From: a virus
Taxonomy: Duplodnaviria; Heunggongvirae; Uroviricota; Caudoviricetes
Strand: one strand, 5' to 3'
DNA: 43,864 nt
IMG/VR virus record: IMGVR_UViG_2711768005_000008
The position numbers and the translations under genes were made by a program. The first letter of the stretch is position 1. Each line of letters opens with the position of its first letter. Below are positions 860 through 42,853 of this stretch, in pieces. A model generated the notes under the pieces. The model was given only the letters and a program-made list of their open reading frames with translations, ran no database searches and had not been told where the DNA came from.

Positions 860-1405
860 TTAACCCGCTTTTGGTTCTACCGCGTTAGATTTGCGACTTC
901 TCTCAGTTTCTTCCAAAATCTCTCTGACGCGTTCGTCAGACATACCTTCAAGCTGTAATGCAGCTATTCTTTTCCTTCCTTCTAAGCGGATTAGATCTTG
1001 ATTTTCAGGCTCTAACAACCGAGCTAAGTACTTGGCTCCATTCAGAACCAAATTTTTCGATAGCTGCTCTAAGTCTTTTTCATCAAGTGCGCTGATAATC
1101 GTCATAATTATCTTCTTGCTTTCATCTTGATTTTCCTTGATCTCACACCGATTCACTTGTGATGCATCACTGAATCCACATAGCCACTCAACACTTACTC
1201 CTTCGATAGACGCAATCTGAAGGGCGACACTTAAGGATGGCTCAGTGCCACGAGACAGATAATTGTTTAGTGTTGAAAATGAAAGCCCCCAATCTCTTGC
1301 TGCAGCTCTGACGCTGCGGGAGCCAATCAGCCTTTTCAGACGCTCAGCAATGCTTTCTTTTCTACCACCAGGAAAAGAAAGAGATGTTGTTGTTTGCTTG
1401 TTCAT
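860..1405 (-). CDS. c: Mu-like repressor (c-like), 181 aa
   Basis: Divergently placed upstream of ner-A-B, size and position as in Mu; operator-like inverted repeats lie in the 1405-1590 intergenic region; no motif-level confirmation. Confidence 0.55.
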   Translation of the reverse strand: MNKQTTTSLSFPGGRKESIAERLKRLIGSRSVRAAARDWGLSFSTLNNYLSRGTEPSLSVALQIASIEGVSVEWLCGFSDASQVNRCEIKENQDESKKIIMTIISALDEKDLEQLSKNLVLNGAKYLARLLEPENQDLIRLEGRKRIAALQLEGMSDERVREILEETERSRKSNAVEPKAG

Positions 1406-1823: not shown

Positions 1824-3911
1824 ATGTTTGCTTCAGTTAAAGAACTGGTTGGATTACCGGGGATGCCGGGAACGGAGCAAGGCGTTCGCTATTCAATCAG
1901 GAAGTATGCAACCAGCGAAACCAGCAGACGCCGCAAGAAAGGCGCTAAAGGTTTTGAATACAGCATTGACTGTTTACCTGAAGTGACACAGCAGGCATTA
2001 CGCGAACGTTATGCCCTGCAACTGATGACGCAAAAAGCCGATGAATCACCGGCTCCGGTGGTGACAAAGGCCAGACGCTCGTCTGCCGTGGTTGATGCGG
2101 TGGAGGCATATCGCGGATCACCACAACTGATGGTCGAACGCCTCAATGCCCTGACTGAAAACCAGCGCCAGGTGGCAGACGCACGCATTGCGATCGTCAG
2201 TGAGGTGCTGAAATTCACGCAACAACCCGGTTTCAGCTGCGCTAAAGCTATCCGGTTCCTCGTTAACAGCCTGGCACGATCACAACTGGACGAGCGCATT
2301 GTGGCAATGGTTGAGACGGCGAACGCCAAAAAGGGAAACAGCCGCGCGTTGAGTGAAATCACGCTGAAACGCTGGATTGCGGCCTTTAACAAGGCACAGA
2401 ACGCCGCTGAACGCCTGCTTTTACTGGCACCGGGTAAACGCCAGGAAATAAAAGCCGAAGATATTAACTGGCTGCCCGAATTTCTGGCGCAGTATCGCCA
2501 GTCAAACGGCCGACCAATGACCGAGGCTTACGAGGATTTTGTTGCTGAATGGCAGCACCGGCACGCTGATGAGCCTTATATGCTCGATATCATGCCCTCT
2601 TATGACACCATTCGCCGCGCAATGAAGAAACTGCCGGAAGTGGTGAAACAAAAAGGCCGGGTAACTGGCAGTGAATACCGTCAGCTTGAGGGATTCACGC
2701 GCCGCGACTGGTCCAGAATGCCGGTGAATTATGTCTGGATTGGTGACGGTCACGGCATGAAGCTGAAATGCGCGCACCCGGTTCACGGGCGGCCATTCGC
2801 ACCGGAAGTGACCTTTGTTATCGACGGTGGCACGCGCTTTGTGGTGGGCTGGAGCCTTGACCTGGCTGAAAATGTTTTCGCCGTAGCCGGTGCCATACAG
2901 CACGGTATTCGCCATCATGGCAAACCGTTTCTGTATTACTCGGATAATGGCTCCGGGGAAACCGCCGACGTCCTGGATAAGGAGATTGTGGGGATACTGC
3001 CACGACTGGGGATTAATCACCCGACAGGGATTGCCGGTAATCCGCAGGGACGGGGCATTATCGAACGGCTTAACCGCACATTACCGATGCGCATAGCCCG
3101 TAAATACCGCACCTATTTCGGGAAAGGAGCAGATCGCGAGACGTTACGTAAAACCAACCGCGATTTACGCTCGGCATTCAGTGCCCTGCAACAGGGCAAA
3201 CGGCTGAACGCCCGGCAGCAGTCAGCGATGCGTGATTTACCGTCCTGGTCTGAACTGATTGATGCCATTCGTGACGGTGTTGAGTGGTACAACAACCGGC
3301 CGCACGATGAATTACCCATGAAGCCGAACGGTAAACATTACAGCCCGGCGGAGTTCAGAAAAAAACGCCTGGCGGAAGAGGACACGGAAATTGAATGGCT
3401 GTCCGATGTTGAACTGCGGGATATGTTCCGGCCGATGGTGGAGCGCCCTGTAAGACGCTGTGAAATACGCTGGCTGAATAATATTTACTACGCGCCCGAG
3501 CTGCGTGACGAGCATGGCCGTAAGGTACTTATCAGCTATGACATTCATGATGCCGAACGAATTACCGTGCGCCGCCCGGATGGCAGCGTGATTTGCGAGG
3601 CGGTATGGGACGGCAATAAACGCGAAGCCTTCCCTGTCAGCGCGGAATACTACAAACAGCAGCAGCGCCTTAAAGGCATGCGTAAACGCGCAGAGGAAAA
3701 AATCCGTGATGCCGAGGATGAGGTTGTCAACGTGCTGGAGCACAAGCCGCAGGAGCCCTGGCTGGAAAACATATACCGCCCTGTGGGTAATACGGTGACC
3801 GTTCAGCAACCGGTCGCTGACGATGAACCTGATGAAGAATACGAGCGTAATTTCCAGCGGGGATTGCAACTGCTCGAAGCGAAATTAAAAGAAAGTGATC
3901 CGCTGGCCTGA
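1824..3911 (+). CDS. A: Mu-type DDE transposase A
   Basis: 695 aa, follows ner; catalytic-core-like region VWIGDGHGMKLKC...FVIDGGTRFVVGW...YYSDNGSGE. Confidence 0.85.
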   Translation: MFASVKELVGLPGMPGTEQGVRYSIRKYATSETSRRRKKGAKGFEYSIDCLPEVTQQALRERYALQLMTQKADESPAPVVTKARRSSAVVDAVEAYRGSPQLMVERLNALTENQRQVADARIAIVSEVLKFTQQPGFSCAKAIRFLVNSLARSQLDERIVAMVETANAKKGNSRALSEITLKRWIAAFNKAQNAAERLLLLAPGKRQEIKAEDINWLPEFLAQYRQSNGRPMTEAYEDFVAEWQHRHADEPYMLDIMPSYDTIRRAMKKLPEVVKQKGRVTGSEYRQLEGFTRRDWSRMPVNYVWIGDGHGMKLKCAHPVHGRPFAPEVTFVIDGGTRFVVGWSLDLAENVFAVAGAIQHGIRHHGKPFLYYSDNGSGETADVLDKEIVGILPRLGINHPTGIAGNPQGRGIIERLNRTLPMRIARKYRTYFGKGADRETLRKTNRDLRSAFSALQQGKRLNARQQSAMRDLPSWSELIDAIRDGVEWYNNRPHDELPMKPNGKHYSPAEFRKKRLAEEDTEIEWLSDVELRDMFRPMVERPVRRCEIRWLNNIYYAPELRDEHGRKVLISYDIHDAERITVRRPDGSVICEAVWDGNKREAFPVSAEYYKQQQRLKGMRKRAEEKIRDAEDEVVNVLEHKPQEPWLENIYRPVGNTVTVQQPVADDEPDEEYERNFQRGLQLLEAKLKESDPLA

Positions 3912-3984: not shown

Positions 3985-4926
3985 GTGAATAATATGACCG
4001 ATATTAACGATGTAATCAAGACCATTGATGAACTTATTGATGGCGGCGTACTGACGCAGTATGCCATCGCCAGAGAGGCGGGAATTTCCGACGGCACATT
4101 ATCGGCTTTCCGTAAGGGAAAATATAAAGGCGATAACGCTGCTGTGGCTGCTTCCCTGCGCTCCTGGTATGAGAACTGGAATAAACAAAGCGCACTGCCG
4201 GAACCGCCGCAGTTTGTGGAAACTCAGACAGTCCAGGAGCTGCGCGCACTGTTTCAGGCGGTTCGCCTGATGGGCTGTATTAACGTTATTGTGGGCGTAC
4301 CGGGTGTGGGTAAAACGGCCACTGCCCGTAATTACTGCCAGGAGCAACCAAACACCTGGATGATCACCCTGTCACCCGCGCACTCCAGCGTCACGGAGTG
4401 TCTGCTGGAGCTGGCCGATGCGCTGGGGATTGATTACACCCGCGCGAACAAAGGGGCATTATCCCGCGCCATCCGCCGTCGCCTGATGGGAACGCGTGGA
4501 CTGGTGATTGTGGATGAGGCGGATCATCTTGGTATTGACGGTCTGGAGCAACTCCGGGCAATTCAGGACGCCACGGGGATCGGGATGGTGCTTATTGGTA
4601 ACCCGCGCGGATTGTTTAAAGGTGGACGCCGCGCCTTTGATGATTTATCGCGCCTGTTCAGCCGTCTTGCCCGTACAAAACAACTTCGCAAGGCCAAAAA
4701 GGCGGATGTGCTGGCCATTGCCATGGCGTGGGGGATCAGTGGTGAGGCCGAGCTGGCCGTCATGCAGGCTATCGCTGAAAAGCCGGGAGCGTTACGCGTT
4801 CTGACACATACGCTTAACCAGGCGTGGCTCACCGCCAGCGGTGAAGGCGCGGCGCTGACAGAAAAACATATTAATGCGGCCTTTAAAGAGGTTTATACCA
4901 ACCCTGAATTACTCTCACAGGTGTGA
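3985..4926 (+). CDS. B: Transposition ATPase B (AAA+ target-DNA activator)
   Basis: 313 aa; Walker A VGVPGVGKT, Walker B VIVDEADHL; directly follows A. Confidence 0.85.
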   Translation: MNNMTDINDVIKTIDELIDGGVLTQYAIAREAGISDGTLSAFRKGKYKGDNAAVAASLRSWYENWNKQSALPEPPQFVETQTVQELRALFQAVRLMGCINVIVGVPGVGKTATARNYCQEQPNTWMITLSPAHSSVTECLLELADALGIDYTRANKGALSRAIRRRLMGTRGLVIVDEADHLGIDGLEQLRAIQDATGIGMVLIGNPRGLFKGGRRAFDDLSRLFSRLARTKQLRKAKKADVLAIAMAWGISGEAELAVMQAIAEKPGALRVLTHTLNQAWLTASGEGAALTEKHINAAFKEVYTNPELLSQV

Positions 4927-6278: not shown

Positions 6279-6809
6279 ATGGCTAAACGCGTTACAAAAT
6301 TAAAGGCCGCAGCCGAGGCGGCACCGCAGACCCGGGAAGAAGTCAGCCGTGATATCCGCACCCTGGGAGATATTCAGCGAGAGGCGCTGCGCCTGGAAAC
6401 GGCGATGAATGACGAAGTGGCAGAAATCACCGCCCGTTATACGCCGCAGATTGAAAATCTTAAAAAGCAAATCAAAGTGCTTTTTAAAGGGATTCAGGAC
6501 TGGTGCAAAACCAACCGTGATGAGCTGACGAACGGCGGCAAAACCAAAACAGCCAATCTGACCACCGGAACGGTGTCATGGCGGCTGGGAACGCCATCAT
6601 GCAGCGTCAGCCGTGATGTGGAAGGTGTGATTGAAATGCTGCGCCGTATGGGGCTTGAGCGTTTCATCCGCACGAAAGAGGAAGTGAACAAGGAAGCCGT
6701 CCTGGCGGAGCCGGATGCTGTGAAAGGCATTGCCGGTATCAAGGTGAATAAAGGCGCTGAAAGTTTTTATGTCGAGCCTTTTGAACAGGACGCCGGACTG
6801 AATAAATAA
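6279..6809 (+). CDS. gam: Gam-like host-nuclease inhibitor (Ku-like DNA end-binding protein)
   Basis: 176 aa; DIQREALRLETAMNDEVAEIT...NRDELTNGGKTKTANLTTGTVSWR...RFIRTKEEVNKEA closely parallels Mu Gam. Confidence 0.8.
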   Translation: MAKRVTKLKAAAEAAPQTREEVSRDIRTLGDIQREALRLETAMNDEVAEITARYTPQIENLKKQIKVLFKGIQDWCKTNRDELTNGGKTKTANLTTGTVSWRLGTPSCSVSRDVEGVIEMLRRMGLERFIRTKEEVNKEAVLAEPDAVKGIAGIKVNKGAESFYVEPFEQDAGLNK

Positions 6810-7488: not shown

Positions 7489-8003
7489 TGTTCTTTAAAA
7501 CATCAAACCCTTCCGCGCTGGCTGCGTGGCAAAAATACCAGCAGGACTGCCAGAAAGTTAAGGATGAGGCAAAACGCCTTGAGGCCGTGCTGAATGTTGC
7601 GTGCCGGTCGGTATTTGTATCCGGTATCAGTGGATTTTACTTTAAGGGACTGCGTTTTACGGAGGACAAATATCCTTTTCATCGCGACTTATGGCGAAAA
7701 CCGACTGCGTCGAATGGCTGGAGCTGCACACCGCGCACATCACGTATCCCTAAAACCCTGCGTGTTGCCTCTGATGAACTGAACAGTCTGTGGCGTGAAT
7801 ATTCGCCCGTCACGTATGCCAGAACCGATGCGCTGTTGTTCTGGTTGGGTATTGATTTCTCGGCAATCCTGTTTGGCCCTGTGAAGTGGTTCTGCGTTGA
7901 CGATGTGATTTACCTTCAGTGCGGCGTAAAACCCGCAAAACAGAAAATGACCGAAATACTGTCTGATGAGTTTTATGCTGCTGAAAAGCGAGTCAGGGGG
8001 TGA
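7488..8003 (+). CDS. hypothetical protein
   Basis: 171-aa ORF, start overlaps the previous stop. Confidence 0.4.
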   Translation: MFFKTSNPSALAAWQKYQQDCQKVKDEAKRLEAVLNVACRSVFVSGISGFYFKGLRFTEDKYPFHRDLWRKPTASNGWSCTPRTSRIPKTLRVASDELNSLWREYSPVTYARTDALLFWLGIDFSAILFGPVKWFCVDDVIYLQCGVKPAKQKMTEILSDEFYAAEKRVRG

Positions 8004-8006
8004 TGC

Positions 8007-8558
8007 ATGATGAAATTACAACCCATGGGACTAAAAGGTCGCGCCCCCGCTCATGTCCGTCCGTGGACACCTGAAGAAGATGCGCTGCTGATTGCGCTTT
8101 ATTCATCCACCCCGGTTAAGGATATTGCTGCCAGAATAAAAAGAACTGTCTGGGCTGTATATAACCGGACTGGTGTATTGCGCAGTTCATACCCGGAGTT
8201 ACTGAAATATAAACACCCAAGATTTACACCTGATGAAGATAAGTTTATTCGAAAAAATGCCAGAACAATGACCTGCCAGCAAATGGGAGAATATCTCGGA
8301 CGTAATAAAGATTCTGTCAGATGTCGGGCAGGAATGATTGGTGCTGGATTAACAAAGTGCGGAGAGTTACGCCCCGGCACGCGCATATCTGATGATGATG
8401 TACGTCTTATACGTGAGCTGCGTGATTCCGATTACCCACGCCGTCTGTCATTCCGGGAAATTGGCGAAAAGTTTGGAATATCTGAACATTCTGCTCACGC
8501 AGTTTATTACCGTCGCCGGACTGCCGAGGACGCTGTATTACGGGAGTTAACGCCATGA
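8007..8558 (+). CDS. hypothetical DNA-binding protein with two W-x-P-[ED]-ED (SANT/Myb-like) repeats and a C-terminal HTH-like segment
   Basis: WTPEEDALLIALY... and FTPDEDKFIRKN... repeats; LSFREIGEKFGISEHSAHAVYY. Confidence 0.4.
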   Translation: MMKLQPMGLKGRAPAHVRPWTPEEDALLIALYSSTPVKDIAARIKRTVWAVYNRTGVLRSSYPELLKYKHPRFTPDEDKFIRKNARTMTCQQMGEYLGRNKDSVRCRAGMIGAGLTKCGELRPGTRISDDDVRLIRELRDSDYPRRLSFREIGEKFGISEHSAHAVYYRRRTAEDAVLRELTP

Positions 8559-8887
8559 TAACGACCTTATTTGTTGAATCAGATGAACCTCTTGTGTGTG
8601 CCGCCGGAATGCCGCTCTGTGGCGGAACGCTGACCGGCGTTTATTTCGGGGATTTGCGCGGTTATCCCTGGCATTCACTGGATGACGCATTTCCGCCTGA
8701 TATGGAGGCTGTCGTGCTGATTGTTCAGTATGGTGACCAACAGGAACTGCGCATCGGCCATATGGGGTATGAAGGCTTTTTTATTGATGAAGAAACCGGA
8801 GCCTGCCTTGAAGATGAGGACGGACAGGTGACGCACTGGTGCCATCTTTCGGCCTTGCCGGAATTACAGGGGATACATAATGGATGA
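8555..8887 (+). CDS. hypothetical protein
   Basis: 110-aa ORF overlapping its neighbours. Confidence 0.4.
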   Translation: MITTLFVESDEPLVCAAGMPLCGGTLTGVYFGDLRGYPWHSLDDAFPPDMEAVVLIVQYGDQQELRIGHMGYEGFFIDEETGACLEDEDGQVTHWCHLSALPELQGIHNG

Positions 8888-9023
8888 GCAAATTGTTGAA
8901 TGTCCCACCTGTGGAAATGAGGACCCGGAGTATCTGAAAGAGTGCCCACATTGTGGTGAGATAAAATGTAACCACTGCGATATGGGCGACGACACTGCAT
9001 GTATAAATTGTGAGGATGAATAA
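8880..9023 (+). CDS. 47-aa Cys8 zinc-ribbon microprotein (four CxxC pairs); absent from the ORF track because shorter than 60 aa
   Basis: ATG at 8880 overlaps the upstream stop; MDEQIVECPTCGNEDPEYLKECPHCGEIKCNHCDMGDDTACINCEDE. Confidence 0.45.
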   Translation: MDEQIVECPTCGNEDPEYLKECPHCGEIKCNHCDMGDDTACINCEDE

Positions 9024-9024
9024 T

Positions 9025-9312
9025 ATGGAAAAAGAAATCAAATTTGCGCCTAAATCTATCGACGAAGAACTGGCTAAAATCGGCATGCTTGAACGTATGC
9101 GGGACATTATCGAATATGCGATAAAAGAAAATCTTGCAGCCAGAGAAGCCCTTTTGATAATGGAGCGGGAGATTAACCTGATTAAGGATGCTGTATCTCT
9201 GGATAATAAAATAGCCCGCGAGGAATACGTTCGCCGTAGGCTCGGTGTTGATGGTTCAGCAATTCTTACATCTGAACATTATGCAAAAATTTTTAATCTT
9301 TTTCAGCGGTAA
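9025..9312 (+). CDS. hypothetical protein (start could be GTG 9010)
   Basis: ORF; GAGGA upstream of ATG 9025. Confidence 0.4.
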   Translation: MEKEIKFAPKSIDEELAKIGMLERMRDIIEYAIKENLAAREALLIMEREINLIKDAVSLDNKIAREEYVRRRLGVDGSAILTSEHYAKIFNLFQR

Positions 9313-9532
9313 TCCCCATACAGGCCCGGAGATTGTCGAAATGCCAGTCGGTATTAATATATGAGCCATCCTGGATATCTTCTGCATTTTCCGGGGTAGA
9401 GTTTTTTTGAGCGAGATTGATAATATGTATTGCCTCCTCACGGGAAATCAGCCCCTTATCGAACAGGGTTACCATAAGATTTCCAGCCATTGTGAATGCG
9501 GCAACATCAAGTGCATTTTTTATATCTGACAT
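9293..9532 (-). CDS. hypothetical small protein on the opposite strand to the early operon
   Basis: 79-aa ORF with AAGGA 8 nt upstream of its ATG; fills the 9312-9603 gap, convergent with the 9025 ORF. Confidence 0.45.
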   Translation of the reverse strand: MSDIKNALDVAAFTMAGNLMVTLFDKGLISREEAIHIINLAQKNSTPENAEDIQDGSYINTDWHFDNLRACMGITAEKD

Positions 9533-9602
9533 AGATTTTTCCTTTTATGTTAATTGACATGGCGGTGCGGTAACACCGCCCATTTTTTATGGAGCCACGA
9601 TA

Positions 9603-10115
9603 ATGAATCGCGCTTCCCTGATTACCTTAATACATGTCGCAAAACGCGATCTACAGCTTGACCATGATACCTATACATCCGCGCTGCTGGCAGCCACCGG
9701 CAAATCCAGTTGCCGTGATATGTCACCCGGTGAGTTATCCCGCGTGCTGGATGTTTTCAAAAAACGCGGTTTTAAAGTGCGTCAGAAGCCGGTTAACCGG
9801 GCCTTAAAACCGGGTACGGTGACCGCCAAAATTCGCGCCATCTGGAAAGTGATGCACCGGCAGGGATTTATCTCTGATGGCGGGGAAACGGCCCTTAACC
9901 GCTGGGTGAAATCGCAGACGGCCGCGCAGAACGACGGCGAAGGTGTGGCTAACTGGCAGTGGCTGGAGCAACAACCCGCGCTGGCCTCTGATGTGCTGGA
10001 GCGTCTCAAACGCTGGCACCGCCGCAAAATGCTGGCAGCCCTGGATATGTCGGAACGTGCAGTGATGAGTTATGAGCGTGTTTGCAGGCTGTATGAAAAA
10101 TCATTCCCCCGTTAA
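9603..10115 (+). CDS. gemA: GemA-like (Mu gp16 / DUF1018-type) regulatory protein
   Basis: N-terminus MNRASLITLIHVAKRDLQLDHDTY...AATGKSSCRDMS as in the Mu gp16 family; position just before mor/C. Confidence 0.55.
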   Translation: MNRASLITLIHVAKRDLQLDHDTYTSALLAATGKSSCRDMSPGELSRVLDVFKKRGFKVRQKPVNRALKPGTVTAKIRAIWKVMHRQGFISDGGETALNRWVKSQTAAQNDGEGVANWQWLEQQPALASDVLERLKRWHRRKMLAALDMSERAVMSYERVCRLYEKSFPR

Positions 10116-10185
10116 CCCCAAATCCCGCCACAGCGCGGGATTTTTATTTTAAACTTGCCCTGTGTAATGATGACCGGAGGCGGGT

Positions 10186-10608
10186 ATGGCTGAAACACAG
10201 ATGAGCATGTTTGGTGACAGCGAACAGCTGCACGCGCTGATTGACCGTCTGGATGATATTCCTGATGATGAGCTGAAAAAGAACTGGCCCGGCACGCTGC
10301 GGGACCTGGTTGATGTGATCAGTGCTGAACTGCACCGTCAGGGGATTGAACCTGCTCAGGCGGGAATGCTTGCCCGTAAGGTTGCAGCCGCACAGGCCGG
10401 GTACATGGGCGGGCGTGGTTATTATCTCCCGGTCGGTGAATCCCTTTTCACCGAACTGCGCAATAATGAAATTTTTTCCCGCTGGAGCCAGGGCGAAAAA
10501 ATTGAAACCCTGCGCCGCCACTACCAGATGTCAGAGACGCAGATTTACTCCGTTATCCGCAACCAGCGTCGCCTGCATCAGGAACGCACGCAGCCACGGC
10601 TTTTCTGA
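10186..10608 (+). CDS. Mor/C-family transcriptional activator (only one family member present)
   Basis: 140 aa, directly upstream of the lysis and late genes; the size and position of Mu Mor/C. Confidence 0.55.
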   Translation: MAETQMSMFGDSEQLHALIDRLDDIPDDELKKNWPGTLRDLVDVISAELHRQGIEPAQAGMLARKVAAAQAGYMGGRGYYLPVGESLFTELRNNEIFSRWSQGEKIETLRRHYQMSETQIYSVIRNQRRLHQERTQPRLF

Positions 10609-10679: not shown

Positions 10680-11180
10680 ATGCCAAAACTCCCCGCACCC
10701 CTGCGTAAAAAGCTGATTGCCCTTGTTCTGGCCGGAGCCGGGACGTTCACCATTGCCACGCACTACACCGGCTACTGGGAAGGGAAAGAAAACACCACGT
10801 ACATTGATCCCACCGGCACCCCCACCATCTGTTACGGCCATACCGGCCCGGATGTGAAACCGGGGATGACAAAAACTGATGAAGAGTGTCTGGAGCTGCT
10901 GGAAAAGGACATGAAATGGGCCTTTGCGGCTATCGATCGTCATGTTCAGGTGCCGCTTACCCGTGGTCAGACGGTGGCGCTGGCCTCCTGGATTTTCTGG
11001 GCCGGTGAAACGAACTTTCGCAACTCCACGCTCCTGCGCCTTATCAATGCCGGGCAGATGCCCGCGTCCTGTAAGCAGTATATCCGCTGGATTTATTCAA
11101 AGGGGGTAAAACTCCCCGGTCTTGAGGCCCGCCGTTCGGCGGATGAATGGTTATGTCGTTACGATTTGCCGAAAGTCTGA
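10680..11180 (+). CDS. lys: Endolysin, T4-lysozyme-like (GH24), with probable N-terminal SAR (signal-arrest-release) domain
   Basis: Gly/Ala-rich weakly hydrophobic N-terminus LIALVLAGAGTFTIA followed by the E-x8-D-x5-T catalytic triad (YWEGKENTTYIDPTGTPT). Confidence 0.75.
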   Translation: MPKLPAPLRKKLIALVLAGAGTFTIATHYTGYWEGKENTTYIDPTGTPTICYGHTGPDVKPGMTKTDEECLELLEKDMKWAFAAIDRHVQVPLTRGQTVALASWIFWAGETNFRNSTLLRLINAGQMPASCKQYIRWIYSKGVKLPGLEARRSADEWLCRYDLPKV

Positions 11181-34179: not shown

Positions 34180-34752
34180 ATGCTGATTGGGTATATCAGG
34201 GTGTCAACAAATGACCAGAATACGGCGCTACAAAGAAATGCGCTGGAATGTGCAGGATGTGAGCTGTTTTTCGAAGACAGAATAAGCGGTAAGACAAGGG
34301 AGCGTCCCGGACTTAAACGCGCATTAAAGCGACTCCGGCCAGGGGATACCCTGCTGGTCTGGAAACTGGATCGCCTTGGACGCAGTATGCAGCACCTTGT
34401 CCTTTTAACAGAAGAACTCCGGCAACGCGGCGTTAACTTCCGCAGCATTACGGACAATATTGATACATCCACTCCCATGGGACGTTTCTTTTTCCATATA
34501 ATGGGCGCGCTGGCGGAAATGGAGCGGGAACTCATTATTGAACGTACACGCGCGGGTCTTGCTGCTGCCCGTGCTCAGGGGCGTCATGGCGGCAGACCTC
34601 AGAAACTGACAGAGAAAGAGCGGGAGCAAATCGCCCGTTTGCTGGCTAATGGCGAGTCCCGTAAACAAATCGCACTGATATTTGATATTGGCCTTTCCAC
34701 CCTTTATCGTTATTTTCCTGCCTCACCAGCTCCGTCACCAAAAGTACCGTGA
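34180..34752 (+). CDS. gin: Serine DNA invertase (Gin/Hin/Cin/Pin family)
   Basis: MLIGYIRVSTNDQNT...LLVWKLDRLGRS...C-terminal HTH GESRKQIALIFDIGLSTLYRY; classic resolvase/invertase N-terminal catalytic motif. Confidence 0.9.
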   Translation: MLIGYIRVSTNDQNTALQRNALECAGCELFFEDRISGKTRERPGLKRALKRLRPGDTLLVWKLDRLGRSMQHLVLLTEELRQRGVNFRSITDNIDTSTPMGRFFFHIMGALAEMERELIIERTRAGLAAARAQGRHGGRPQKLTEKEREQIARLLANGESRKQIALIFDIGLSTLYRYFPASPAPSPKVP

Positions 34753-34837: not shown

Positions 34838-36892
34838 ATGTCAGACTCCAAGTGGAAAATGCTCTCCGCCATGCCCGGAGAGTTTTCAGTCAAGGTTGCC
34901 GGTGGCACGGTGGCATTTATTGAAAGCCCTTTCCGCCCTTCGGGTAATAAAGGGGGGATCACCTTCGCAGACTGCGTGATCCGCTTCAGCACGAAAGAGC
35001 CATTATGGGTAATGCCGGTATCCGGTAATCCCAGTGCAGAAATCACCAGTTCAGGCGTGACTGGCATCATTCCAATCACATCTGACGTGGCCGGAACGCT
35101 CACGCCCTCCGACTGGAATGCACCGGATAACGCCGGGCCTTCCGGTAGCACGAATGGCAGCAGTTCAGAGCCGGAATATTACTTTGTTGTCATTCTCGCG
35201 GGTCAGTCAAATGGCATGGCCTACGGCGAGGGGCTGCCGTTACCGGATTCGTTTGACCGCCCGGACCCACGCATTAAGCAACTGGCACGCCGCAGTACGG
35301 TAACGCCCAACGGTACGTCGTGTACATACAACGACATCATTCCGGCAGACCACTGCCTGCATGATGTTCAGGATATGAGCGGGATAAACCACCCGAAAGC
35401 TGATCTGGCAAAAGGCCAGTACGGGACTGTCGGTCAGGGGTTGCATATTGCCAAAAAACTGCTTCCCTATATCCCACAGAATGCCGGGATACTTCTGGTG
35501 CCCTGTTGTCGTGGCGGGTCAGCATTCACCACTGGAGCCGACGGCTCATTCAGTGAGGCCAGCGGTGCTTCCGCTGATTCTTCACGCTGGGGGGCCGGTA
35601 AACCTCTGTATCAGGACCTGGTAAGCCGCACCAAAGTCGCGCTGGCGAAAAACCCGAAAAACAAACTTCTGGCTGTGGTCTGGATGCAGGGAGAGGCAGA
35701 CCTTGCCTCAGGAAGCCAGCAGCATAATAGTTTATTCACGGCCATGGTTCAGCAGTTCAGAACTGACCTGGCTCCGCTTGCTGCGCAGTGCGTGAGTGGA
35801 AATGCCACCACGGTGCCGTGGATTTGCGGTGATACCACGTATTACTGGAAAAACGCTGGCACCGATAAATATGAGGCAGTATACGGTGGCTACAAAGGCA
35901 AGGAAGCACAGAAAATTTTCTTTGTACCGTTCCTGACGGATGAGAATGGACAGAGCACGCCAACGAATGCTCCGGCGGAAGACCCGGATATTGTGGCTGT
36001 CGGGTATTACGGTGCAGCATCCCGAACCCAGGGCAGTTTTGTTTCGACACAGCGTGACAGCCATTTCAGCTCATGGGCACGCAGGGGCGTCATTTCAGAC
36101 CGTCTGGCCTCAGCTATTATGCTCCATGCAGGGCGCACGGCTGAACTGATGCGTGGGCAGACCGTGACACCACCGGATGAGAAGCCGTCACCTGATACAC
36201 CATCAAAACCGTCCACGCCACCCGCAGACACCACGACGATGAGTACGCTATTTGCTTACCGGGCATCTGAGTCTGAAGGACGGTTGACACCACAGGGTTG
36301 GGCTGCCGGAGGTGGCAAGGCTCAAATCGTGGATGATGCCGGAGCCAGCGGGGGTAAGGCAATGAAACTGACCAAGGAAACAGGAAGAGCCCCCTGGTAC
36401 CTTGAGCATGATGCTGGTAATGGTGCGGACCTGCTGGGTAAAGGTGGTCTTGTCAGTTGTCGTTTTAAACTCGATGGCGCGCTTACGGCTAATCAGTACG
36501 CACTGGCGCTGTACTGGCCGGTTTCTGCCCTGCCGCAAGGGGTTACTCTGGAAGGAAATGCCGGTCATAACCTGCTGGCATCGTTCTACGTACAGAGCGA
36601 TGCCACAGACCTTAACGTGATGTATCACAAAGGAAACACGGCGCAGAACACGAAGCTGGGGTCATTCGGCGCATTTAATAACGAATGGCATACGCTGGGC
36701 TTCCGTTTTGCCGGTAACAACAGTATTGAGGTGACGCCGGTCATTGATGGTAAGGACGGGACACCATTCATGCTGTCGCAGTCTCCGGTCGGCACGTTTA
36801 CGGCAGACAAGTTGCGCGTGACCGATATCACTAAAAATGCGACTTACCCGGTACTGATTGACAGTATCGTGGTGGAAGTGAATAACGCGTAA
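34838..36892 (+). CDS. SASA/SGNH-hydrolase-family carbohydrate esterase (sialate O-acetylesterase-like, NanS-p-like) with N- and C-terminal extra domains
   Basis: GQSNGMAYG nucleophile motif (residue ~125), VVWMQGEADL block, later DSH; 684 aa; sits between gin and com/mom, where Mu has no gene. Confidence 0.6.
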   Translation: MSDSKWKMLSAMPGEFSVKVAGGTVAFIESPFRPSGNKGGITFADCVIRFSTKEPLWVMPVSGNPSAEITSSGVTGIIPITSDVAGTLTPSDWNAPDNAGPSGSTNGSSSEPEYYFVVILAGQSNGMAYGEGLPLPDSFDRPDPRIKQLARRSTVTPNGTSCTYNDIIPADHCLHDVQDMSGINHPKADLAKGQYGTVGQGLHIAKKLLPYIPQNAGILLVPCCRGGSAFTTGADGSFSEASGASADSSRWGAGKPLYQDLVSRTKVALAKNPKNKLLAVVWMQGEADLASGSQQHNSLFTAMVQQFRTDLAPLAAQCVSGNATTVPWICGDTTYYWKNAGTDKYEAVYGGYKGKEAQKIFFVPFLTDENGQSTPTNAPAEDPDIVAVGYYGAASRTQGSFVSTQRDSHFSSWARRGVISDRLASAIMLHAGRTAELMRGQTVTPPDEKPSPDTPSKPSTPPADTTTMSTLFAYRASESEGRLTPQGWAAGGGKAQIVDDAGASGGKAMKLTKETGRAPWYLEHDAGNGADLLGKGGLVSCRFKLDGALTANQYALALYWPVSALPQGVTLEGNAGHNLLASFYVQSDATDLNVMYHKGNTAQNTKLGSFGAFNNEWHTLGFRFAGNNSIEVTPVIDGKDGTPFMLSQSPVGTFTADKLRVTDITKNATYPVLIDSIVVEVNNA

Positions 36893-38179: not shown

Positions 38180-38226
38180 GATTGAGTGATAAAGATATCA
38201 ACAACAAAGCAGGAGGTTATGCGGCC

Positions 38227-38427
38227 ATGTATCGAAACATACGGTGCCGACATTGTAACAAGCTACTGGCACGAGCCAGCTTCAGTTATCTGGAAGTTAA
38301 ATGTCCGCGCTGTAAAACCCTCAATCAAATCACATCTCAGAGCGCCACAGAGCACCCCACATACACAAGGAAATCCTGTCGTGGGGAACAGAAAGCAAGT
38401 TACATCCCGTATCATCAGCACGCCTGA
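38227..38427 (+). CDS. com: Com-like zinc-finger translational activator of mom
   Basis: [10 protein letters not shown]...EVKCPRCK with the same C4 arrangement as Mu Com; overlaps the mom 5' end. Confidence 0.7.
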
Positions 38428-39118
38428 ACTTATTCACTATAACGACAATATCGTCGGTTATGGCTCCCGTGAGTTACGGGTTGAGACAATAAGTTGCTGG
38501 CTGGCCCGGCTGGTCGTCGTCAATAAACATTACAGCCATCGTTTCGTAAATAATTCCTACCTTCATCTGGGCATATTTTCAGAACGGGAGCTGGTTGGCG
38601 TAATGCAATGGGGTTATGCCCTTAATCCAAACAATGGTGCACGCGTCGTAACTGGCACGCAGAACCGCGAATATATGGAGCTTAACCGGTTATGGCTGCA
38701 TGACTGTATGCCGAGAAACTCCGAATCAAGGGCAATCAGTTACGCGCTCAAACTAATCAGACAACTTTATCCGCAGGTGCAGTGGGTTCAGTCGTTTGCA
38801 GATGAGCGTTGTGGCTGTCTTGGTGTCGTGTACCAGGCAAGCAATTTTGATTATGTAGGCAGTCATGAAACAACATTCTATGAACTTGATGGCGAGTGGT
38901 ATCACGAGATTTGCAAGAATGCAATCAAACGAGGAGGACAGCGAGGTGAACATCTGCGGGCTAATATCGACAGAGCCAGTGTTCATAAATTCCGTCAGTT
39001 TCGTTACATCCGGTTTCTGGACAAGAGAGCCAGAAAACGCCTTAACACAAAGCTATTCAAAGTCCAGCCTTACCCAAAACCACAAACAGTTAAAACTGGT
39101 TTGAAAGAGAGTGAATGA
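38381..39118 (+). CDS. mom: Mom-like DNA modification protein (start codon uncertain; frame open from 38186, GTG 38381 proposed)
   Basis: Last gene before the right end, overlapped by com, preceded by the GATC cluster. Confidence 0.6.
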
Positions 39119-39832: not shown

Positions 39833-41021
39833 GGTAAACACCCCGGAAGTGGTGATGCACACTGTTGCTGATGTGATGACAGGAAACGATGGTGAATACT
39901 GTTTCCATGCGCGGACTGGAAAATATGGTGTGTATCTGAAACCGGGCTGGCACAACGAGTACAACGTTGGCGACATTGCTGTATACGACGACTCAAAGCC
40001 CGGCACGCTGAATGACTTTCTGATTGCTCCTGATGAGGGCGACCTGAAACCGGATGTCGTCAAACGCTTTGAGGAAATGGTGGCGCAGGCGCAGCAGAGC
40101 GCCGGGGCCGCAGCCGGAAACGCACAGCAGACGGCGCAGGATGTGGCGGCAGCCGCAGGTTATGCCCGCGCAGCAGAGCAGGCCAAAAATGACATTGATG
40201 CTGCGCTGACCGGCACTCTGAAAACGGCTAACCATCTGTCTGAAATCGCAGCAGCAGGCGAAAAGGCACAACAGAAGTCCCGGGATAATCTGGGGCTGAA
40301 AAGTGCGGCCACGATGGAAGCACAGAGCGACATTTACGACCGGACAAAAGGCCGTCTGGCGATACCCGGCGCATTCGGCTTTGGGTGTGCTTTTCTGCCT
40401 GAAGATGTTATCCGTTTTGACACTAAGAGTGATTTCCTGGCCTGGGTAAGGAATGCGCTGCCAGGTGAATATTCCGTTGCTGGCCCCTACGACATCATCA
40501 TACCCGACACACGGTTTGAAGGGGTGCTCAGCATCCGGTGGACTGATGCACGCCCTGAGACAACAGAACCGAGGTACAGAGCCAAATCCCTTACTTTTTA
40601 CGGCATTAACGGCCCCATTTATCACACCCGCTACTGCTACTGGCCCATATCCAGACTGACTGGCTGGGTGAAAATAAATATAACCACAGAAGATATTATT
40701 TACAGAATCGTGGCGAGCTCTGTCTGCAACAGATGGGGAGACCCTGACATTGGCGGGCTGATTATTGCTGCGTACCAGGGAGAAGCTGACGGTGATAAAG
40801 TCATCAGACTTGTCAGGGGGCAGTCATACAGAGGCTCACGACTGGGACCGGTGGGGATTTCAGTGCCCAGTACTCCCACCGGAACGTATATAGCATCCCC
40901 ACAATTTTTCATTACGGGATGTTCAGAGCATTCATTACCGGGGTCATATAGCGCCCTGTCCGGGGTGCCGGATGCTCATGTCTCTGGCGCAATGCCCGGG
41001 CTTTTTATTCGCACATCGTGA
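39833..41021 (+). pseudogene. Tail fibre gene, 3' portion (5' part displaced upstream by the IS66/Mu-like insertion)
   Basis: Frame is open from the IS boundary with no plausible native start; Ala/Gln-rich shaft region then a C-terminal globular part; followed by a putative tail-fibre assembly gene. Confidence 0.55.
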
Positions 41022-41793: not shown

Positions 41794-42156
41794 TGGTGGA
41801 GCTGGCGGGAGTTGAACCCGCGTCCGAAATTCCTACATCCTCGGTACTACATGCTTAGTCAGTCTTTACATTCGCTTGCCAGCTGCGGACGGACACGCCA
41901 CTAACAAACTAGCCTGATTAAGTTTTAACGCTTCAACCCCAGGCAGGGCTTCCACGCGATCTCTTTTGGGTTTGACCTCTCTTGATCCCCGTCCTAAGAG
42001 CGGAGGCTAGGGAGAGAGGGCTCTAAGCAGGTTATTAAGCTGCTAAAGCGTAGTTTTCGTCGTTTGCGACTATTTTTTGCGGCTTTTTACGAGGCCAACC
42101 GCCCCTCGGCATGCACCTTGGGTTTCGCAAATCCCGTCGAATCCAGAATCAGCCCC
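41794..42156 (-). ncRNA. ssrA: tmRNA (SsrA), 363 nt
   Basis: 5' GGGGCTGATTCTGGATTCGACGGG, tag ORF GCAAACGACGAAAACTACGCTTTAGCAGCTTAA (ANDENYALAA-stop), 3' end ...GGGTTCAACTCCCGCCAGCTCCACCA. Confidence 0.95.
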
Positions 42157-42370: not shown

Positions 42371-42853
42371 TTAACGGTGGGCGTTTTTCATGATACGTGC
42401 TTTATCCACCTGCCATTCGCGTTCTTTGATATCTGAACGTTTATCGTGCTGTTTTTTACCTTTGGCGACGCCGATTTTCACTTTGCACCAGGCATTTTTC
42501 CAGTACAGGGAGAGCGCCACTACGGTATAGCCTTCTCGATTGACGCGACCGTACAATGAGTCCAGTTCGCGCTGGTTGAGAAGTAACTTGCGGGTACGGG
42601 TAGGATCGCACACCACATGCGTGGAGGCCACGGCCATTGGCGTGATGTTAGCGCCAAACAGAAATGCCTCTCCGTCACGCAGAAGGACGTAGCTGTCGCT
42701 GATATTGGCTTTTCCTGCGCGCAGGGATTTAACTTCCCAGCCTTGCAGGGCAAGTCCCGCTTCGAACTCTTCTTCGATAAAGTATTCGTGACGGGCGCGC
42801 TTGTTAAGCGCGATGGTCGCTGAACCAGGTTTATGTGCTTTTTTCTTCGTCAT
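42371..42853 (-). CDS. smpB: SsrA-binding protein SmpB
   Basis: 160-aa protein [29 protein letters not shown]... in the conserved position upstream of ssrA. Confidence 0.9.

Follow-up and report, generated by a model that had tools for sequence, protein, structure and literature searches.

Within the early region of a Mu-like prophage, one small open reading frame is oriented against genes that otherwise all run in the same direction. This locus raises the questions of whether the reversed frame, called ORF79 here, encodes a protein, to which known phage gene it is related, and what role a gene in this orientation could play. The window analysed, a stretch of 43,864 nucleotides, contains a Mu-like prophage of E. 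coli and host DNA on its flanks. Its section from 8800 to 10200 has 100% identity to five complete E. coli chromosomes.

Position of ORF79 in the prophage

The genes and signals of the window that are relevant to these questions are the following.

860-1405, minus strand: repressor gene
1824-3911: transposase A gene, in the left part of the prophage
3985-4926: B gene, in the left part of the prophage
6279-6809: Gam gene, followed by a run of small plus-strand early genes
9025-9312, plus strand: homologue of Mu gp14 (E15), PHROG 6075, with 49% identity to Mu gp14
9293-9532, minus strand: ORF79, a gp15-like small protein gene of 79 aa with an ATG start
9402-9408, minus strand: A7 run in the coding strand of ORF79
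9533-9602, no strand: divergent spacer of 70 nt from the ORF79 start to the gemA start
9540-9544, minus strand: Shine-Dalgarno sequence AAGGA of ORF79, 7 nt before the ATG
9561-9590, plus strand: terminator-like GC hairpin GGCGGTG-cggtaa-CACCGCC-CATTTTTTAT, with a T tract
9591-9594, plus strand: gemA ribosome site GGAG, directly after the hairpin
9603-10115, plus strand: gemA, a gene of the Mu gp16 family that adjoins ORF79 on the right and is divergent from it
10186-10608: gene of the Mor/C-family activator, directly before the lysozyme gene
10680-11180: lysozyme gene

The start codon of ORF79 appears as CAT at 9530-9532 when read on the plus strand, and the 3' end of the gene is convergent with the plus-strand ORF 9025-9312, with an overlap of 20 nt. 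An earlier note on this DNA had described a minus-strand frame of 79 residues with a good ribosome site, converging on the ORF that begins at 9025. The ATG, the AAGGA located 7 nt upstream and the overlap agree with that description. The same note had placed the frame in the only gap of the early array. Positions 9313-9602 are indeed free of plus-strand genes; 220 nt of this interval belong to ORF79, and the 70-nt spacer to gemA remains beside it. ORF79 is the sole reverse-strand gene in the early array, and from the repressor gene to the tail-fibre region no further credible gene on the minus strand was found to break the array.

Some further features of the prophage were observed. The window prophage contains one gene of the Mor/C family (10186-10608), compared with two, mor and C, in Mu and in some relatives such as L021. 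A gene for a Gin-like serine invertase is located at 34180-34752. It is followed by a gene (34838-36892) for a protein of 684 aa with a SASA carbohydrate-esterase domain and DUF6645, which, near the right prophage end, looks like a cargo or tail-associated enzyme. Mom is found at 38186-39118, and an IS66 Orf2-like gene at 303-626. To the right of the prophage lie a tail-fibre remnant (39849-41021), the tmRNA gene ssrA (41794-42156, minus strand) and smpB (42371-42853, minus strand). The prophage therefore lies at the ssrA integration hot spot or directly beside it.

Evidence that ORF79 encodes a protein

ORF79 matches PHROG 32893 from end to end with E=1.3e-45, and PGAP (NCBI) calls it as hypothetical protein WP_001280088.1. 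It is present in 14 of 5,426 complete E. coli genomes and is intact in all 14. Two allele groups are separated by 13.5 synonymous and 13.5 non-synonymous differences in ORF79, and the pN/pS value between them is 0.27-0.32, compared with 0.28 for gemA. Homologues were collected by searching 1.8 billion representatives exhaustively with HMMER and a 5.8-billion protein set with a profile. They form a small family of proteins of 67-85 aa with identities as low as 31-37%. A scan of species-representative genomes found no relatives.

A codon alignment was made for five members, with nucleotide identities of 45-55% among the distant ones. The frame of the minus-strand gene is the only one of the six that is free of stops in every member. 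A "shadow" frame on the plus strand has an amino acid identity similar to that of the gene frame, but contains 2-8 stops per pair. In the window, the longest plus-strand ORF within the interval does not exceed 46 aa. Homology at the protein level is detected at 31-49% identity where the nucleotide identity is about 50%. The earlier note had also considered that relatives might conserve plus-strand coding across this interval; such conservation was not found, and all of the frames other than that of the gene contain stops. These comparisons of related sequences establish ORF79 as a real protein-coding gene.

Frameshifted copies of ORF79 are found in public assemblies. The A7 run has slippage variants of -1 (P0008) and +1 (P0007), and further frameshifted copies (P0005, P0009 and P0010) enter the same alternative frame, ORF 9256-9441. 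Sequencing errors, decay or phase variation could each account for the frameshifted copies.

Relationship to gp15 of phage Mu

The nearest known counterpart of ORF79 is gp15 of phage Mu (Mup15, NP_050619; PHROG 8747), which RefSeq NC_000929 annotates as a minus-strand gene (7896-8162) for a hypothetical protein of 88 aa. Like ORF79, Mu gp15 is located between gp14/E15 and gemA; it is convergent on gp14, whose end it overlaps, and 70 nt remain between it and gemA. The Mu spacer, like that of the window, contains a GGCGGTG..CACCGCC hairpin before gemA. The counterpart of Mu gp15 in SfMu is SfMu_16. In D108 the same place and strand are occupied by an unannotated minus-strand ORF of 119 aa (GQ357916 7853-8212; L028 554-913), lying within an annotation gap of 376 nt.

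With the profile of the ORF79 family, hhalign gives a probability of 92.4% for Mu gp15 (E=5e-7, covering the first 53 residues) and of 95.1% for the D108 ORF (E=3.4e-8). Mu gp15 itself matches PHROG 32893 at 5.9e-4. In a fold search of BFVD, the Mu ORF F-134 had the joint best query-normalised TM-score of 0.58, with a non-significant E-value in a search where no match was significant. The residue identity of Mu gp15 and ORF79 is about 25% and extends over 53 residues only, and the two N-terminal helices are homologous. However, the two subfamilies differ in several respects. Their C-terminal thirds cannot be aligned, and the W-H-(L/F)-D-N-L sequence of the ORF79 subfamily is missing from Mu gp15. 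They belong to different PHROGs, 32893 for ORF79 and 8747 for Mu gp15, and the Mu-type gp15 evolves faster, with pN/pS of about 0.54. The profile matches, together with the common position, establish ORF79 as a divergent member of the Mu gp15 (Mup15) lineage, and we are highly confident that it is a real gene of the gp15 family.

The records of Mu are not in agreement for this locus. The minus-strand gp15 is missing from GenBank AF083977 at the gp15 place, 7896-8162 (L024 1097-1363), and RefSeq keeps Mup15. Instead, AF083977 annotates a plus-strand ORF of 55 aa, Mu_54, at 7960-8127. In the Mu type, the start, stop and length of the minus-strand ORF are kept at 33% nucleotide divergence, whereas Mu_54 loses both its ATG and its stop. 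From these comparisons we argue that the minus strand is favoured in both Mu and D108 and that Mu_54 is probably a wrong call. The literature searched contained no functional study of Mu gp15, and no description was found there of how widely the gene is conserved, of its strict pairing with gp14 or of the conserved hairpin.

Pairing with the gp14 gene

The gp14 homologue gave no match in Pfam or PDB. In all ten distinct contexts that were read, the convergent partner of the gp15-like gene is a gp14 homologue. These contexts come from Klebsiella prophages, from metagenomic, Logan and IMG/VR contigs and from a second E. coli type; the Klebsiella prophage member P0011 is found in 679 index blocks of the collection. 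The gp15-like gene keeps its place and strand in the Mu-like phages of three genera, Escherichia, Shigella and Klebsiella, as well as in metagenomic contigs, with identities of 31-49%. In the two most distant members, L042 and L044, gp14 is convergent even though the other neighbour is not gemA. A gp14 profile that included the most distant members was too divergent for scanning.

The pairing is also seen when the search starts from gp14. A gp14-like gene is present in 16 complete E. coli genomes, and all 16 also have the small gene; the E. coli relatives without the small gene are also without gp14. Among 231 E. coli genomes having the gemA-mor segment, the small gene occurs in 14 (and in 2 of the Mu type). 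An intact small ORF is found at 19 of the 23 IMG/VR loci located via gp14. The remaining four comprise two loci that share a large rearrangement, one locus at a contig edge and one clean deletion. The deletion is in L062, a Mu-type viral contig in which gp15 has been cleanly removed and gp14 and the hairpin are intact; gp14 is therefore tolerated without gp15.

The coding overlap of the gp14-like gene with ORF79 varies from 4 to 98 nt among relatives, so that the overlap itself is not conserved. With 40-42% GC (42% for ORF79 alone), the stretch comprising the gp14-like gene, ORF79 and the spacer is an AT-rich island in a prophage of 54% GC. As judged from this distribution and composition, gp14 and the gp15-like gene constitute a two-gene, AT-rich, dispensable module. 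Their co-occurrence could reflect the linkage of neighbours in one mosaic block and not a shared function.

The polymorphic slot around gemA

The composition of the region around gemA is variable in close relatives, which have a DUF2513 gene, other minus-strand genes, or none. The slot behaves as exchangeable. The DUF2513 protein (136 aa, PHROG 585) is encoded on the minus strand in the slot of ORF79 (L002 2718-3128 and L010 2045-2455), in E. coli Mu-like prophages with a gemA that is about 94% identical. Like ORF79, this gene is on the minus strand, it lies 64 nt from gemA, and a similar GC hairpin precedes the gemA ribosome site. Unlike ORF79, it encodes an unrelated protein and is not accompanied by a gp14 homologue.

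A terminator hairpin, AAATCCCGCCACAGCGCGGGATTT, is located between gemA and the Mor-family gene at 10120-10143 of the window. It is duplicated in relatives (L003 2898-2925 and 3640-3670; L013 2990-3015 and 3650-3680). The copies of AAATCCCGCCACAGCGCGGGATTT flank other minus-strand genes of 113-140 aa, with no family match, at a second slot. The two strongest plus-strand terminator-like hairpins of the early region, at 9561-9590 and 10120-10143, bracket gemA.

The spacer and the hairpin before gemA

The spacer of nine distinct close alleles has one variable site, at 9536, and none from 9537 to 9602. The block that is fully invariant in the nine alleles extends over 9537-9663 and includes the first 60 nt of gemA, and about 13 variable sites would be expected in it. 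The 20-nt element GGCGGTGttgcagCACCGCC is present in Mu, D108 and Klebsiella-type phages, and in one lineage the hairpin has the variant form GGCCGCG..CGCGtGGCC. In an alignment of ten spacers, pairing is kept in each of the 70 pair cells of the hairpin, and two of the pairs have changed on both sides. The length of the spacer is 64-74 nt among relatives. The spacer to gemA, with the hairpin, is found in nearly all relatives; in L042 and L044 the right-hand neighbour is a different gene.

In relatives without a minus-strand gene, the upstream plus-strand gene overlaps the gemA start (ATGA) and the hairpin is missing. As the hairpin is also found beside the unrelated DUF2513 gene, it tracks the interruption of the plus-strand array and not a given protein. 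In the Mu record AF083977 the spacer is annotated as "semi-early promoter" for gemA-mor, with reference PMID 9454718. No Rfam family was matched in 9150-9700. The element occurs once in the window. The possibility of a repeated operator was rejected on account of this single copy, and the hairpin is also unlike the Mor-binding hairpin of the Mu middle promoter.

Expression signals of ORF79

Relatives have an AAGGA or GGAG-type site at the position matching the Shine-Dalgarno sequence of ORF79. The earlier note had proposed a promoter search on the minus strand at 9533-9600. No consensus match to a minus-strand sigma-70 promoter is present in 9533-9602, and a weighted-matrix scan of 13 relatives gave weak sites only, with no convincing conserved one. 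The weak candidate that recurs has its -35 element in the hairpin loop and its -10 element ending about 15 nt before the ATG. The mRNA would start inside or after the ribosome site, which would therefore be cut off. The best promoter candidate of the window (9693-9664) was rejected, as it has variable positions and is missing from the other allele group. The scan gave no minus-strand terminator adjoining the end of ORF79; the nearest terminator-like sites on this strand, 8376-8360 and 7553-7538, are weak and lie at least 0.9 kb further on.

Two other features were observed near the start of the small gene. Two E. coli genomes, L008 (NZ_CP027586) and L009 (NZ_CP075632), have IS1 insertions immediately beyond the right-hand, start-proximal end of ORF79, within or beside the spacer, and one of the two genomes also has a prophage deletion reaching the late region. 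L042 (about 2440-2500) and L044 (about 1600-1650), the most distant members of the family, have an inverted repeat of 8-10 bp near the small gene. The repeats are CCTGTTAG...CTAACAGG and CCTTGTTAGA...TCTAACAAGG, and they would sequester the ribosome site of that gene. No comparable sequestering repeat was seen in the window.

Predicted properties of the protein

The product of ORF79 has a mass of 8.8 kDa and a pI of 4.5. Three helices are predicted, with a mean pLDDT of 80 from an alignment of 11 sequences. The residues Asp9, Phe13, Asn18, Leu23, Gly27 and His64 are invariant in the family. The N-terminal section contains the family motif D.AAF..(A/S)GN...L..KG, and most family members also have the motif WHLDNL in their C-terminal part.

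Searches of Pfam and NCBIfam with ORF79 gave no matches, the PADLOC defence models gave none at E<=1, and sequence searches of the PDB, with the single protein and with family profiles, gave nothing usable. No helix-turn-helix or other DNA-binding domain was recognised in the product, and its fold matches are generic helical bundles. SHOCT-like matches obtained for 2-3 members at E of about 0.06-0.08 were dismissed as a shared helix-turn motif. No membrane helix was found, the highest hydropathy over 19 residues being 1.27, below the usual cut-off of 1.6; the idea of a transmembrane toxin was rejected on this value.

Possible role of ORF79 and alternative explanations

The product of ORF79 would be a small soluble acidic three-helix protein. 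It would most likely act by binding another protein, as it shows no signature of DNA binding, of an enzyme or of a membrane protein. Its most probable partner or target would be gp14, because both genes are gained, kept and lost together. ORF79 would be read leftward, head-on against the transcription from the early promoter Pe. With this orientation and no terminator of its own, expression of ORF79 would be reciprocal to early transcription. In the prophage, with Pe repressed, some expression might occur. Once Pe fires, transcriptional interference and antisense pairing with the 3' end of gp14 would silence ORF79. This gp14-linked, reciprocally expressed mechanism, to which gene order and co-occurrence point, is the explanation that we tentatively prefer, at somewhat less than an even chance.

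The earlier note had remarked that antisense genes in phage operons are often lysogeny-expressed cargo with immunity, exclusion or toxin-like functions. The general part of this remark agrees with the present results, in that ORF79 is a genuine protein gene, AT-rich and situated in an exchangeable slot; the idea of random lysogeny cargo does not. The corresponding explanation would be a free-standing "moron", that is, a host-benefit exclusion, defence or toxin-like gene expressed in the lysogen from its own promoter and unrelated to gp14. The orientation on the opposite strand within a repressed operon and the AT-richness relative to the phage are consistent with such a gene, as is the polymorphism of the gemA slot, where close E. 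coli relatives have other minus-strand genes (DUF2513 and unrelated ORFs of 113-140 aa). The gp15-like gene is also dispensable, as seen in L062. The adjacent gem operon of Mu is reported to be constitutive in lysogens in the passage of PMC3820752 that cites Paolozzi and Ghelardini 1992 (its reference 71), and a precedent is provided by the small exclusion genes of the Pseudomonas Mu-like phage Fc02 (PMC9936078). However, no defence or toxin model in PADLOC and no Pfam or NCBIfam family matches ORF79, there is no membrane segment, and a promoter-terminator pair of its own was not found. Moreover, Mu gp15 is its counterpart, and the position and strand are kept at 31-49% identity, always with gp14, which fits an old resident module better. 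Immunity, exclusion or toxin cargo in the form stated in the earlier note is not supported by these results, and we regard a free-standing moron as rather doubtful.

Another possibility is that ORF79 encodes a divergent regulator of the gem operon. A dimer would bind GGCGGTG-N6-CACCGCC and control gemA and the Mor-family activator, and hence the early-to-late switch. The layout is the classical one, with a small gene divergent from an operon and a perfect inverted repeat within about 70 nt, and the spacer with the first 60 nt of gemA is invariant in the 9 alleles. The Mu spacer is the annotated "semi-early promoter" of gemA-mor in AF083977, and in Mu the Mor-binding site of the middle promoter lies within the stretch of the predicted post-mor terminator, an example of a terminator-like repeat in a promoter region. 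However, a helix-turn-helix or other DNA-binding signature is not seen, and the generic helical bundles matched by the fold give no indication of one. The identical GGCGGTGttgcagCACCGCC stands beside proteins of about 25% identity (Mu gp15 and the Klebsiella family), and a similar hairpin accompanies DUF2513; the element thus does not vary in step with the protein. Its GC stem followed by a pyrimidine tract is more like a terminator or an RNA element, and a regulator of this kind appears improbable. Still less credible, and in our view very improbable indeed, is that ORF79 is no functional protein gene: it would be a by-product, or the interval would act only as antisense RNA or as an untranslated spacer, or the true gene would be on the plus strand, like Mu_54. 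The plus-strand ORF of 55 aa in AF083977, in a record without gp15, the frameshifted copies in some public assemblies and the shadow frame with its similar amino acid identity between relatives could be cited for it. Against these stand the minus frame as the only one stop-free in all relatives, the 2-8 stops per pair of the shadow frame and the limit of 46 aa on plus-strand ORFs in the interval. The Mu-type minus ORF keeps its start, stop and length at 33% nucleotide divergence and Mu_54 does not; protein identity of 31-49% persists at about 50% nucleotide identity, pN/pS is about 0.3, and the gene is intact in 14 of 14 E. coli genomes. Plus-strand coding was rejected on account of the stops in the plus frames and of the loss of the ATG and stop of Mu_54.

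The preferred gp14-linked mechanism could be extended further. The gp14/gp15-like pair with the hairpin might be an unrecognised control point of Mu-type development, for which we see only a slim chance. A small protein expressed in the prophage, together with an antisense transcript, would then restrain gp14 or gate the read-through into gemA and the Mor-family activator. If so, the pair would have a part in timing the early-to-late switch or in the commitment to it.

In Mu, a paradigm phage, the one reverse-strand early gene has even been dropped from the current GenBank record, which gives a plus-strand ORF instead. The present comparison gives grounds for reinstating gp15 in the Mu annotation and for annotating the corresponding gene in D108. 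It also defines a two-gene module for genetics and offers a testable idea on the organisation of transcription entering gemA-mor. If ORF79 encodes an ordinary dispensable accessory protein, the outcome would be a corrected annotation.

Comparison with known systems

The exclusion genes of Fc02 and morons in general resemble ORF79 in being small, opposite to the lytic operon, AT-rich, dispensable and located in a variable region. Unlike them, ORF79 has no recognisable promoter or terminator of its own; it shows no sequence similarity to them and is distinguished by its deep positional conservation and by the obligatory gp14.

Convergent antisense control of early genes is known in lambdoid phages, where OOP RNA of lambda acts against cII and sar of P22 against ant. 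The arrangement of ORF79 is similar in that a leftward transcript would extend over the 3' end of an early gene read rightward, pair with its message and collide with its transcription. However, the leftward transcript of the present locus is putative, the coding overlap is 4-98 nt, and the ORF79 unit differs from both OOP and sar in encoding a conserved protein.
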